Assembly (NCBI GenBank): GCA_963771885.1 | Contig: CAVYVF010000023.1 | Coordinates: forward strand, 288,001-352,000 | Source: Candidatus Bathyarchaeota archaeon | Lineage (GTDB): Archaea; Thermoproteota; Bathyarchaeia; TCS64 | Reading direction: 5' to 3' | Length of the DNA stretch: 64,000 nt | In this document: in pieces, positions 33,001 through 36,000 of the stretch | How the letters are laid out: each line of letters starts with the position of its first letter | Numbering within the stretch: position 1 is the first letter of the stretch | Made by a program: the position numbers

Positions 33001-36000
33001 CTACAACATCCTAGAGGAGCAGTTCAACGCCCTGCAGAGCCTGAAGAAGGACGGCTTCGTAAACGACGAGGGCATCGCAAAGATATTCGCTGACAACCAC
33101 AAGCGTCTTACCGGATACAAGCCAAGGGAATAACCATGCCACGAAAGAGGTCGAAGGGGATACCCGACCGCAATCCTCATCGGCCTCGACAATCAGTCCG
33201 CCAACCTCTGGCTCGTCTACAGTGAATCGCTGAAACAGGGAAAGACGATAACGAAGATAGGCAACGACGAAAAAACGGCCTATAAGCACTACGAAGAGAT
33301 TGTGGAAGCTATTAGAACACTGCTGCCTGAGGGCTTCAACCAACTCCTCATCGCCTCAACGGAGAAATACACGAGAAAATCCGGATTCATAGAATATATC
33401 AACCGCAGCCACAGCTGGCTCACAAAGAAACTCACAGTAAAGTTGCTAGACAAGAAAGCGGTGACGAAAATGGATGTCCTCCAGCTCGTCAAGATGAACA
33501 TTATACAGGAGAGTGTCGCCGAGGCGGCAGTTGAATCTAATGAGAATGTCATGGAGATGCTAGAGAAAGCCCTGAACAGCGGCGACGTTATGTTCACAAT
33601 AGAAGAATTATCTTACGCCCTCCGCGACGAGGCTGTGCCTGAGTTCATCCTCGTCACCGAAAAATTCGACAACTCATGGAGGGGAAACCGCCGCTACCAA
33701 AGCATGATCCAACGCGTTAAGAACATGAAAGCAACATTCACAATAGTAAAGCACGATACCCCTGCTAACGTACGCCTTGAACAGCTCGGCGGATTCGTCA
33801 GTGTAATTCGGCGGTAACCTGAAACCAAATATGCCTTTTCGCCGCAAGGTGGAAATAACCCCCTTACTAAATTATACAATGAAATAGTTATTTATATCAA
33901 CATAGAGTAACATCGACGACCACGACGCAGCAAAAAGATATAGATGCTCTCAGATTAAGAGAGGAAGAAACGTTAAATCTCGTCTAAGAAAGCATGCGCC
34001 TTTTCTAAGAATTGACTTGGTATGTAAGTATCAGCTGTCGGTACGCCCATCTTCCTCAGTTTTTCGATCGCTGAAGCTGTATATGGTCTAAATATTTCCT
34101 TATGCGCTAGGGGACTTATCCCGGCGAATACTCTGATGCCGTCGTCAAGCATCCGTCCGATTACCTCATAGTTCTGTCTGTTTTCTACGTCGTCCTTCCC
34201 TGGATCGGTGAGGACGAAGTCACTGAAGTAGAAACATATGCGGTCGCTACGCTCCGAGGCCTCAGCGAGCTGGTCGTAGGCCCACTGTATGCTCTTGTTC
34301 GGCACGGTACCGCCCCAGGTGGAGCCCTCGACTGTTCCGCGGAACCTGAACTCCATCTGCGTCGTCGTCATCGTAATCATATCGAGAAGCTGCTCAAGGA
34401 CGGGCTCAAGGTCAATCTCATCGCTCAAGTCCTTGATGACGTGGCTGTTGCTCTCGTAGAGAATGAGGCCCCACTTATCGTTGCGCAGCCCCCACATGAG
34501 TGGTATGAGGCTCAGTATACTGTAGTTGACAGAATTAATGCCCTCAAAGTCGTAGAACATAGTGTTACTGATATCTTGGATGTAGACGATGCTCCTGTTC
34601 TTCTTCTTGCGCTTGAGCATCATGAAGTCATCAGGGCGTATCTCCTCGAGCTTCCTGCCGAGGTCAATGATATTCTCGAGACTCCGGTCTTCATCGATGG
34701 AGTCTGTGTCCTCGCCGGGCTGGAACGGGCGCACCGAGGCTACCCTGCTCCAGTCATCCTTCCTCTCAAGCTCCCTTCCGAGCTTCATGAGGCGCTCCTT
34801 GAGGAGGTGGGCGAGGAGCTTACGCATCTTCTCGTCCCTCTCCTCCTTGAAGGTCTTGGCGCCGAACTTCAGTATCTTGTCCTCGCCGGGGCCAACGCCG
34901 ATGTCGGGTTTGTTGCTCAGTTTCTTGAACTGATCTGGCCCTGTGATACTGGGGTTGTCGTTGACAATGTTCTGTTCAAGCCCCTTCGCATGTGGTGTGA
35001 CGTAGACCTCCTGGCTCTTCTTGCTGAGAAGGCTGAGGAGCTGGTCGCCGTCCATCTCGTCTTGGGGCTCCTCCTCGTACTCGTCAATGTTAGTGAGGAT
35101 ATCGAGGGCGATCTTCTCCGCCATCTTCTGATTGTCGACCTGGCTCGTGATCACCGCAGCGCGGAGCAGATCACGTGAATGTTAGACAACCGTTACGCAT
35201 GTAGCCGGGGAGCAGAATTTTCCCCATGTTTATGCTCTGGCGGGGGCTCGGTTTCTCGACCACCTCCCTGCTCTTCCGCATACGCTGAATGAACTCGGGT
35301 ATGAAGTAGTTCGCGTAGTGGAAGGGGTACTCCAGGGAGGAGGTGGACATCTCAGCCCAGTACCTTCTTGATTATCTCATCGACGACCTTCGACACCGTC
35401 TTACCCTCTTCACCCCTCACCTTCATCTCCTTGGCGAGCACCGCGGGGGCGAAGAACCTGATGGTGGCGTCCTCGGTCTCGAAGCGGTCGATATACTTGT
35501 TGACGAGGCGGGTAAGATAGATTCCGCTGCGTGGCGATGCGGGGATCTCAAGCACCGGGCTCTCTCGAGTAGCCTTGACAATCTCGTAAATTTTATCAAG
35601 GGCGCTTATGGGGAGGCTGAAGGCGGGGGTGTTCTCTTTGAGTATCTCGAGCTCCGTCTCCTTCGTCGGGTATGTGAGCCTGATCCAGCAGCCTATACGG
35701 TCGACGAGGACCTTACTGAGCCTGTAGGTTCCGGAGGTCTCAATAGGGTTCTGGGTTGCGACGAAGGCGAAGCTCTCCTGCGCCTTGACCATGCCAAGGG
35801 GGAAGAGGTGGTAATGGCGCTCCTCCAGCGGCGCGATGAGGCTGTTCTGACAGAACTCTGTTGCGCGGTTAAGCTCATGGGCGACGAAGAGGCCCCCCTC
35901 GACCATAGCGCGGATGAGTGGACCCGGCTCGAAGCTGCTGATGTTCCTACCACTACGTACAACGAGTGCAGGGTCGAAGCTTCCGATGAGGCGGCTCGGC

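Follow-up and report, generated by a model that had tools for sequence, protein, structure and literature searches.

The locus and its reading frame

The window, i.e., the whole stretch of 64,000 nucleotides of the Candidatus Bathyarchaeota contig that was analysed, contains on its forward strand an open frame of 227 codons plus TAA (33134–33817) that starts right after the TAA (33131–33133) of the upstream gene. In translation, this frame is free of internal stops and has no start codon, no ATG, GTG or TTG being present before an R-G-Y-P motif. An ATG is located at 33136 in another frame, which reads M-P-R-K-R-S-K-G-I-P and reaches a stop after 29 codons. The closest relative, P0002 (226 aa, 95% identical), begins MPRKGRRGYPTAILIG, and the window differs from it at this place by one added A at 33148 (AAG[A]GGT). 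Judging from the relatives, in which it is intact, the true gene corresponds to 33136–33817, with the ATG at 33136 as start and 226 codons; the intact product has 226 aa and the N-terminus M-P-R-K-G-R-R-G-Y-P. The features of the locus are as follows.

32264..33133, + strand: Amidohydro_2 gene, upstream and co-directional (Pfam, 3.3e-28)
33136..33147, + strand: start codon and codons 1–4 (M-P-R-K), 2 nt past the upstream TAA; relatives start MPRKGRRGYP
33148..33148, + strand: single extra A that shifts the frame; absent from the relatives' contigs and from locus L006
33149..33166, + strand: remainder of the basic tail and R-G-Y-P (G-R-R-G-Y-P, residues 5–10), from conservation and tail statistics
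33164..33499, + strand: central domain (eRF1_2/RNase H-like), residues ~10–121, from the secondary structure of the model, hhalign, Foldseek and conservation
33500..33580, + strand: long linker helix joining both domains, residues 122–148, from the predicted model and aligned to Pelota
33581..33814, + strand: C-terminal domain (eRF1_3/Pelota domain), ending ...EQLGGFVSVIRR, from eRF1_3, TIGR00111 and 5eo3_A matches
33815..33817, + strand: stop codon TAA, from translation

The protein-coding gene is real and normally intact. It has 48 close homologues, nearly all of 220–229 aa, and 87 cluster representatives were recovered at E <= 1e-3. In all four sequencing runs compared (from three studies), an environmental contig of a close relative that spans the site is without the extra A, and so is locus L006 (96% identical); this check was made on the contigs of relatives, the runs sharing less than half of the words of the stretch (best 0.34). 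The same assembly also carries a 1-nt deletion in aRF1, near position 861,027 of the contig, and a 1-nt insertion, at 35175, in the conserved downstream neighbour. Since these two genes are broken as well, the extra A is likely an assembly indel private to this assembly, in line with the first-pass annotation, which had assumed an indel. The same indel explains why the gene caller gives only a GTG-started ORF of 171 aa (33302–33817), 55 codons too short, as had been suspected.

We consider it quite unlikely that the frameshift is real in this genome, which would make the gene a fresh pseudogene or leave only the 171-aa fragment expressed from the internal GTG. The extra A is indeed present in the assembly as given, many relatives do without the family, and elsewhere there are decayed copies containing several stops (e.g., in genome G205). 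However, the frame is otherwise intact and its product remains 95% identical to P0002, each of the four related runs has a contig without the base, and the deletion in aRF1, an essential gene, together with the insertion at 35175, points to indel errors. Programmed +1 frameshifting over the extra base, or the use of a non-canonical start codon in the long frame, is close to refuted: the shift at codon 5 falls within an A/G-rich stretch, but neither the four runs nor L006 contain the extra base, the 52 other gene-holding genomes of the order all give a full-length match with no shift at this site, and ATG, GTG and TTG are all missing before R-G-Y-P in the long frame.

A Pelota derivative without the N-terminal domain

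The proteins of this family (215–272 aa) belong to the Pelota clade and are built of two of its domains, the central and the C-terminal one, without the N-terminal domain. The observation of an N-domain-less Pelota paralogue at 33134–33817 was thus confirmed by profile searches, hhalign, AlphaFold2, Foldseek and phylogeny, whereas the interpretation that accompanied it is supported in part. A profile of 52 members compared with the PDB placed Pelota/Dom34 chains first (5lzw, 4.9e-10), with aRF1 at 7.6e-4. In hhalign comparisons, the match to nine Bathyarchaeial Pelotas reached 98.9% (E 2.5e-17), with family columns 18–252 on Pelota columns 154–379, and that to the aRF1 of the order 11.5% (E 0.0026). 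The AlphaFold2 model (pLDDT 90.2, pTM 0.85) retrieved 3oby_A (1.6e-13), 3wxm and Dom34 as the top Foldseek matches, then aRF1/eRF1, and then Balon (8v9j_z, 2.6e-7). The C-terminal domain of human Pelota (5eo3_A) was aligned at an rmsd of 2.3, and a resemblance of the C-terminal domain to small ribosomal proteins of the L30e/eS12 type appeared at Foldseek ranks 47 and 50. In the phylogenetic tree, the family forms one clade (SH-aLRT 100) within the Pelota radiation, with aRF1 sequences as outgroup (support 100); its stem is very long, with 2.3 changes per column.

Among the 52 members, 34 match eRF1_3 (PF03465) at E <= 0.1 (best 1.1e-8), one matches Pfam eRF1_2, and 31 weakly match positions 135–348 of TIGR00111 (best E 4.3e-11); P0002 scores 38.1 bits, compared with an equivalog cut-off of 177.65 bits. 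The absence of any Pfam family above its cut-off, as first reported, does not hold for all members, as 8 of the 48 close ones carry eRF1_3 in precomputed Pfam annotations; the protein of the window itself does not reach eRF1_3. Both domains and the Pelota linker helix are kept together in every member. When all six-frame fragments of the window's genome were searched with a Pelota HMM (hmmsearch --max), the N-terminal domain was not found, and PF03463 matched this genome at the aRF1 locus only. A split gene with the N-terminal domain encoded apart was therefore rejected, there being no N-domain fragment anywhere in the genome.

The family had been called undescribed. This remains correct in that we found neither a dedicated Pfam or NCBIfam family nor a paper dealing with it, but JGI/IMG already labels 18 of the 48 close members as 'stalled ribosome rescue protein Dom34'. 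In the ESM Atlas, the nearest clusters are unnamed Bathyarchaeota proteins of 232–246 aa, and a cluster of 232 aa named 'eRF1 domain 3' (score 0.91) is labelled Nitrososphaerota.

A basic tail, a loop without conserved Gln and a reversed charge

The N-terminal domain of Pelota (Pelota_N/eRF1_1) is Sm-like and occupies the A-site decoding centre and the mRNA channel. Here its place is taken by a tail of about eight residues, 53% of them Lys or Arg, followed by RG[YFH]P. Over 64 sequences the tails comprise 315 K/R and 11 D/E among 596 residues and vary in length. The conserved peptide M-P-R-R-R-R-R-G-Y-P originally proposed has to be revised accordingly, the tail of the window's clade being M-P-R-[KR]-G-R-R-G-Y-P. 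Likewise, R-G-Y-P, a pair of Arg and Q..GG are not invariant as had been thought: only two Gly, one of them G8, are invariant in the 52 sequences, and conservation reaches 90% or more at R7, W25, S29, Y49, E53, G66, W94, Q192, N196 and G218. The statement that no GGQ-like loop is conserved stands. We observed no conserved Gln among the 52 sequences, either in the central domain or in the loop equivalent to GGQ (residues ~40–45), and the length of this loop varies; for these two reasons the proteins are probably non-hydrolytic.

The family is strongly basic (median pI 9.49, net charge +8), whereas the central and C-terminal region of Pelota from the same genomes is acidic (median pI 5.73, net charge −4). 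With dN/dS values of 0.10–0.20, the family is under purifying selection. Its mean pairwise identity is 0.51 vs 0.50 for Pelota over 78 genome pairs, a level of sequence constraint like that of a translation factor. A description of the gene as unusually fast-evolving was kept only in part: its dN is 3–8 times that of flanking genes, but its divergence equals that of Pelota itself.

The high pI and the basic tail would also suit an RNA-binding protein acting off the ribosome, in which a basic L7Ae/L30e-like C-terminal domain and an RNase H-like central domain would bind structured RNA, such as tRNA, an sRNA-protein particle or an RNA-processing intermediate. The likeness of the C-terminal domain to L30e/eS12-type proteins goes in the same direction, as does the description, in a section of PMC6514570, of the Pelota domain as a widespread binder of RNA secondary structure, and the stem of 2.3 changes per column fits a functional change. 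We nevertheless regard this explanation as unlikely, since the two domains and the Pelota linker helix occur together in every member, the top full-length structure and profile matches are ribosomal A-site factors, and RNA-processing neighbours are not conserved.

Distribution and loss of canonical Pelota

The family is present in 125 of the 301 Bathyarchaeia sampled. Its coexistence with canonical Pelota was borne out, as both occur in 85 of the 90 holders that belong to orders other than that of the window, whereas its supposed absence from genus relatives (two out of two) was not, as 14 of 17 genus relatives have intact copies. The order of the window (79 genomes, 23 of high quality) was confirmed to lack canonical Pelota: none of the 79 genomes contains it according to TIGR00111 (over cut-off or full length) or to a Bathyarchaeial Pelota profile, which found Pelota in five out of five control genomes. 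In this order, the family protein is the sole Pelota-type protein. It is found in four of the 15 genera, the other 11 lacking the family too; in taxonomic family f26, 6 of 36 genomes have Pelota and 4 of 36 have any match to the family profile at E <= 1e-5. Since 11 genera of the order are without the family and f26 is mostly without both proteins, there is no regular compensation for the loss of Pelota.

In a sample of the phylum, no member was detected in 336 genomes from taxonomic families unseen in the class sample. Five member clusters bear the names of Asgard MAGs (Thor-, Loki- and Promethearchaeota, from NCBI MAG records), so the family is not exclusively Bathyarchaeial, as it had been presented. 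Asgard- and Bathyarchaeia-labelled sequences are mixed in the unconstrained tree, and a single Bathyarchaeial clade is not rejected by the AU test (p 0.452), which together speak neither for nor against a transfer between the two groups.

Genomic neighbourhood and candidate partners

In the lineage of the window, the Amidohydro_2 gene abuts or overlaps the family gene at 10 of 10 Bathyarchaeota loci. These were obtained with the 13 closest sequences, a scan out of reach of the distant (Asgard) members. At the 19 loci examined in other families of Bathyarchaeia this gene is missing throughout, and an operon with Amidohydro_2 was rejected, translational coupling being confined to the window's clade. 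The only common neighbour elsewhere is a convergent gene of ~245 aa, in 8 of the 20 loci examined, and none of the loci examined has a conserved neighbour pointing to translation.

The genome of the window encodes aEF1alpha and an ABCE1-type Fer4_RLI protein, which are likely partners. A complex prediction for aEF1alpha, GTP and the family protein, run without controls, returned 'no answer' (score 0.00) and counts neither way. These two partners could also be bound off the ribosome: the protein would then be a decoy or regulator that captures aEF1alpha-GTP and/or ABCE1 through the surfaces of Pelota and tunes rescue, termination or recycling. The two domains that in Pelota touch the GTPase and ABCE1 are retained (see the structural account in PMC10901736), the top structural matches include 3wxm and 3j15, and Pelota is present beside the family in most holders outside the order. 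However, the family is maintained in an order where there is no Pelota for it to regulate, and its basic charge, compared with the acidic Pelota region, argues against a conserved aEF1alpha interface. We find such a role very improbable.

A putative ribosome factor

We infer for the family an mRNA-independent, non-hydrolytic role as a ribosome factor. That the protein is a Pelota-derived, non-hydrolytic ligand of the A-site/factor-binding region of the ribosome, its gene being broken here by a spurious A, has in our estimate about an even chance of being correct. Like their counterparts in Pelota, the central and C-terminal domains would occupy the A site of the large subunit and the stalk base/sarcin-ricin region, and the basic tail and surface may contact rRNA directly. 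The decoding centre and the mRNA channel would be left empty by the factor, and as nothing enters them, its binding would be independent of mRNA or of a hibernation factor in the channel. By comparison, part of PMC10901736 describes that the N-terminal domains of Pelota and aeRF1 clash with RaiA, that Balon clears the mRNA channel, and that the C-terminal domains of Pelota and aeRF1 mediate delivery by EF-Tu homologues, the middle domain extending to the catalytic centre. Two outcomes could be envisaged: ABCE1-assisted splitting of ribosomes closed to canonical Pelota, or a Balon-like parking of idle ribosomes.

With its surface turned from acidic to basic, the family could have lost the surface with which Pelota binds aEF1alpha. 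If so, delivery would be unlike that of Pelota, or the target would perhaps not be the ribosome.

Probing of the mRNA channel by the tail, as first suggested, is conjectural. A tail of only about eight residues, the lack of a conserved neighbour pointing to translation and the lack of regular compensation for the loss of Pelota count against the reading as a ribosome ligand.

A wider proposal is possible but doubtful: the family may define a new class of archaeal ribosome factors, conserved in Bathyarchaeia and Asgard archaea, that correspond to Pelota minus its mRNA-channel sensor and bind the A site or factor site, by the central and C-terminal domains and the basic tail, irrespective of what fills the decoding centre. 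With such a factor, ABCE1 would split, or keep parked, ribosomes inaccessible to Pelota, either hibernating with an HPF/CBS-type factor or stalled in the middle of an mRNA, and the factor would be the sole one of the rescue type in Pelota-less Bathyarchaeia.

Pelota is usually regarded as universal in archaea, and here a whole Bathyarchaeial order is without the canonical protein; in the four genera that hold the gene, the family protein is the obvious candidate for rescue. As purifying selection has retained the two-domain form alongside full Pelota in many genomes, the family amounts to a natural experiment on the purpose of the Pelota N-terminal domain. The members labelled Thor-, Loki- and Promethearchaeota link it to the archaeal relatives of eukaryotes. 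Annotation of such proteins as 'Dom34' by pipelines leads to Pelota being scored as present where it is absent.

Comparison with known systems

The central and C-terminal domains of the family are homologous to those of Pelota/Dom34; GGQ is absent from both, and a C-terminal ...LGG... strand motif is common to both. Pelota/Dom34 is acidic and inserts an N-terminal domain into the mRNA channel, whereas the family, a paralogue coexisting with true Pelota, is basic and has the short K/R-rich tail and RG[YFH]P instead. In contrast to aRF1/eRF1, it has neither the GGQ loop nor the NIKS-bearing N-terminal domain.

An analogous architecture is found in acVLRF-1, the actinobacterial/chloroflexi Vms1-like RF1 (PF18859), which, according to a section of PMC6514570, lost the codon-binding domain of the aeRF-1 core and gained a short N-terminal extension. 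However, acVLRF-1 falls within the VLRF-1 clade and has the GGxSQ catalytic motif, whereas the family is part of the Dom34 clade and lacks a conserved Gln. At E <= 0.1, members hit 46 Pfam families, and the 25 matched most often do not include PF18859.

Balon, as presented in part of PMC10901736, is a non-hydrolytic protein of the aeRF1 superfamily whose binding is independent of mRNA in the channel, as we propose for the family. It consists of three domains, of which the N-terminal one has an HP motif, the middle one a bL27 trap and the C-terminal one an EF-Tu-binding beta-hairpin, whereas the family has no N-terminal domain, and its structural match to the family is weaker than those of Pelota and aRF1. 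The relevant portion of PMC13324472 places archaeal Balon-like proteins in Methanosarcinia, Syntropharchaeia and Thermoplasmatota, and not in Bathyarchaeia.

The baeRF-1 families (Burroughs and Aravind, 2019; PMC6514570), as characterized in the section devoted to them, resemble the family in being aeRF-1 derivatives that have lost domains, lack the catalytic Gln and were proposed to be non-catalytic A-site binders; unlike the family, they are bacterial and have classical aeRF-1, rather than Dom34, as their closer relative. The same work states, in its treatment of the Dom34-like clade, that this clade holds full Dom34 proteins only. The 25 Pfam families matched most often, out of the 46 hit by members, include none of the baeRF families.

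Finally, an engineered N-truncated eRF1 consisting of the M and C domains is reported to bind ribosomes and to stimulate the GTPase of eRF3, but to be unable to read stop codons. This construct is artificial, of the aeRF-1 clade and with GGQ, whereas the family is natural, Dom34-derived and basic, but it may provide a laboratory precedent for a two-domain factor.

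Relationship to Pelota

The protein encoded at 33136-33817(+) corresponds to the central and C-terminal module of Pelota, without the N-domain and without a catalytic Gln. A word-indexed search retrieved 48 related proteins at E <= 1e-3, nearly all of 220-229 aa, 18 of which carry the JGI name 'stalled ribosome rescue protein Dom34' and eight a precomputed PF03465 assignment. Searched exhaustively with HMMER, 1.84 billion cluster representatives yielded 87 matches at E <= 1e-3, of which 46 reached 1e-10 and 6 reached 1e-30; the full-length family members among them measure 214-272 aa and can be aligned over their whole length, and many other matches are shorter fragments. 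The two weak matches as long as a Pelota (382 and 361 aa) turned out to be Pelota. The third hit in the ESM Atlas, a cluster of 59 proteins (232 aa, 'eRF1 domain 3 domain-containing protein', mostly labelled Nitrososphaerota), could represent another short family resembling Pelota, or else mislabelled members.

Compared alone with PDB sequences, the window protein matched the Pelota 3oby (E 0.0081). The profile of a 52-sequence family alignment (A1), with the window's raw frame as one of its rows, put Pelota/Dom34 on top (5lzw at 4.9e-10 and 3oby at 1.6e-8, then 3j15, 5m1j, 2vgm, 3wxm and 2qi2), with aRF1 at 7.6e-4. By hhalign, A1 aligned over 217 columns with nine Pelotas, seven of them Bathyarchaeial (probability 98.9%, E 2.5e-17; family positions 18-252 on Pelota 154-379), and gave 11.5% and E 0.0026 with aRF1 of the window's order. 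The AlphaFold2 model built on A1 (mean pLDDT 90.2, pTM 0.85, below 50 at residues 1-3) retrieved in Foldseek the PDB entries 3oby_A (1.6e-13), 3wxm, Dom34 2vgn (TMq 0.50) and 3j15, followed by aRF1/eRF1 and by Balon (2.6e-7). The hhalign and 3oby_A matches bear out the first-pass annotation, which had described a Pelota minus its N-terminal domain. As it had also reported, no Pfam family exceeds its cut-off in the window protein. Members hit 46 Pfam families, whose 25 most frequent include neither a baeRF nor an acVLRF1 family. eRF1_3 is touched by 34 of the 52 members and eRF1_2 by one, and the NCBIfam model TIGR00111 gives a weak match, far below cut-off, in 31 of 52 (positions 135-348).

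A quick IQ-TREE analysis (LG+C20+F+G4, 232 columns held in common with the family) included 92 sequences: 39 family members (26 of the 52 in A1 and 13 from genomes), 28 Bathyarchaeial Pelotas, 21 Pelotas of other Thermoproteota and four aRF1. The family is monophyletic with SH-aLRT 100; its stem is long, at 2.3 changes per column, and lies within an unresolved Pelota radiation, separate from aRF1 (100). Genome groupings inside the family mostly mirror those of the Pelotas from the same genomes, as vertical descent would predict.

Reading frame and a single extra base

The start of the gene is disturbed in this assembly. The relevant frames are:

33134-33817, + strand, open frame of 227 codons ending in TAA
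33302-33817, + strand, called product of 171 aa from a GTG, the first listed start

The long frame continues that of the upstream gene (32264-33133), beginning at the base that follows its TAA, and contains no ATG, GTG or TTG upstream of R-G-Y-P, in line with the earlier remark that an in-frame start is missing and that the gene had been called too short. A different frame, starting with the ATG at 33136, reads M-P-R-K-R-S-K-G-I-P and meets a stop after 29 codons. Dropping the A at 33148 (AAG[A]GGT) makes the window fit the start of the closest relative, P0002 (226 aa, 95% identity), whose N-terminus is MPRKGRRGYPTAILIG. In 4/4 public runs from three studies, one contig each (assembled contigs, not reads; the best run shares 0.34 of the window's words) crosses 33148 with 95-99% likeness and exactly one base fewer. 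The A is also absent from the 96%-identical locus L006, and the indel assumed earlier is thus supported. By blastn, L006 differs from the window by eight single-base indels in 10.3 kb. Six of these are intergenic; the remaining pair fall at 33148 and at 35175, where an extra G truncates the next gene downstream from 458 to 393 aa. The sole aRF1 gene of the assembly is also broken:

C23:860920-862127, outside the window (1441-2711 of the aRF1 locus L003), aRF1 gene split by a 1-nt deletion

The break (...SEVMNDL / RNEWGTAVNIKSK...) is most simply an assembly indel; NIKS and GGQ are undamaged, in the second frame. The break in an essential gene suggests that the assembly carries indel errors, and the extra A at 33148 is therefore very probably one of them.

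Sequence conservation and constraint

Two residues, G8 and G219, are invariant in A1, and R7, W25, S29, Y49, E53, G66, W94, Q192, N196 and G218 are conserved in at least 90% of the sequences; the loop between strand 3 and helix 1 varies in length. None of the Gln positions of the central domain is conserved among the 52 sequences, which agrees with the earlier claim that no GGQ-like loop is conserved. R-G-Y-P, previously given as invariant, is exact in only 42 of 64 sequences, and the motif widens to RG[YFH]P. The tail, counted from the N-terminus to the R of this motif, is 8 residues long at the median; lengths run from 5 to 36, and the highest values probably reflect miscalled starts. Taken together, the tails comprise 596 residues, of which 315 are K/R and 11 D/E.

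The family is strongly basic and constrained, and usually occurs alongside Pelota. Its median pI is 9.49 and its net charge +8 (8.95 and +4 once residues 1-12 are removed); for the C-terminal 225 residues of Pelota, in 13 genomes with both proteins, the medians are 5.73 and -4. This charge reversal relative to Pelota argues against a conserved aEF1alpha interface. The dN/dS ratio is 0.10-0.20 where dS is unsaturated, and dN exceeds that of the two flanking genes by a factor of 3-8. When 13 genomes are compared in all 78 pairings, family proteins average 0.51 identity and Pelotas 0.50, and the constraint is thus about equal.

Distribution

The family is real and more widely spread than the first-pass annotation held. 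It had been considered patchy after being missed in two of two genus relatives; our survey finds it in 14 of 17 genomes of the genus. It is present in 53 of the 79 genomes of the order (11 of 23 high-quality ones) and in only 4 of its 15 genera, with 0/8 in the three other families of the order. Some Bathyarchaeia have two full copies (in genome G215, C56:314670-315386 and C25:545-1264), and genome G205 has a decayed copy with several in-frame stops (C7:137957-138693).

The order itself is Pelota-less, as proposed: 0/79 genomes have a Pelota over the TIGR00111 cut-off, and 0/79 match the Bathyarchaeial Pelota profile at E <= 1e-15, a profile that found Pelota in 5/5 control genomes. The listed TIGR00111 matches in the order all start at model position 89 or later and lie in ORFs of aRF1 length or of the family. 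An unfiltered hmmsearch of 46,043 six-frame fragments of the window's assembly recovered only the family ORF (E 4.9e-14, HMM positions 175-355) and aRF1, and no Pelota N-domain.

Among 301 Bathyarchaeial genomes at least 85% complete, 205 have Pelota at E <= 1e-30: 0/52 from the window's order, only 6/36 in another family, f26, and 199/213 elsewhere. Of the genomes with a strong family match (best E <= 1e-25), 35 belong to the order and 90 do not; Pelota is also present in 85 of the latter, so that the claimed coexistence with canonical Pelota holds. Several Bathyarchaeial lineages have neither protein. A simple reading would make the paralogue a substitute for Pelota in the order that lacks it; against this, most genera of the order lack the family, and f26 is mostly devoid of both Pelota and the family.

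A sample of 401 genomes of the phylum yielded 26 matches, all within the window's class, and 0 in the 336 genomes of families absent from the class sample. The loci found among genome contigs (10/10) belong to Bathyarchaeota or Bathyarchaeia MAGs. The NCBI names Thorarchaeota (P0073, P0081), Lokiarchaeota (P0087) and Promethearchaeota (P0098) appear among 30 looked-up representative clusters, and P0172, in the cluster of P0074, is also named Promethearchaeota; these Asgard-named members lie on contigs of 1.7 to 75 kb and their labels stem from MAG binning.

Gene neighbourhood and assembly composition

In 10/10 loci of the window's clade, an Amidohydro_2 gene of the same orientation directly adjoins the family gene or overlaps it; on the other side come a convergent gene for a 458-aa protein and one for a MoxR-type AAA ATPase. 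Neighbouring genes in the window are:

27478-29010, + strand, M32 carboxypeptidase, upstream of the family gene
29108-30070, + strand, radical-SAM wyosine-formation gene (Radical_SAM + Wyosine_form), upstream of the family gene
33973-35350, - strand, conserved 458-aa protein, break at 35175, no Pfam match, pairs with the MoxR-type ATPase
35352-36251, MoxR-type AAA ATPase, pairs with the 458-aa protein

The two upstream genes are ordinary and syntenic in relatives, and relatives of the 458-aa protein are intact and 84-99% identical. None of the window-clade neighbours recurs in 19 loci of other Bathyarchaeial families, and the only neighbour in common is a convergent gene of ~245 aa (8 of 20 loci examined); the context therefore offers no functional lead.

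Contigs C1-C23 of the assembly fall into two G+C classes, ~0.44-0.50 (C1, C3, C5, C6, C10, C11, C14-C18 and others) and 0.55-0.58 (C2, C7, C13, C22, C23). Contamination stands at 6.66%, and two organisms may therefore be combined in the bin. The family gene, aRF1 and aEF1alpha are all on C23, and ABCE1 is on C22.

Possible role and comparison with known families

By analogy, the protein would be a ribosome factor, binding at the sites used by the central and C-terminal domains of Pelota. It would not enter the decoding centre, so that neither mRNA nor a factor occupying the channel would affect its binding. The assembly encodes aEF1alpha and an ABCE1-type protein. N-truncated eRF1 still functions with eRF3 on ribosomes, and Stm1-bound yeast ribosomes are split by Dom34-Hbs1 with ABCE1. 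Passages of the paper on Balon state that aeRF1 and Pelota are delivered by EF-Tu homologues through their C-domains and that their middle domains reach the catalytic centre; RaiA would clash with their N-domains, and Balon avoids the channel (PMC10901736). HPF/RaiA-CBS hibernation factors are now described in archaea (PMC13324472). On ribosomes that carry such factors an N-less Pelota may thus act, either to split them with ABCE1 or to park them.

Full-text searches turned up nothing in print about a Pelota paralogue of archaea that lacks the N-domain; the supplements of the papers cited here might list such sequences. Archaeal Balon-like proteins are reported from Methanosarcinia, Syntropharchaeia and Thermoplasmatota (PMC13324472). 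In passages of Burroughs and Aravind (2019, PMC6514570), the Dom34-like clade is limited to archaeal and eukaryotic Dom34, and domain loss is described only in the baeRF-1 and VLRF-1 families. The two-domain family is a domain-loss paralogue of Pelota, with an architecture to which that of acVLRF-1, as presented there, is analogous (PMC6514570).
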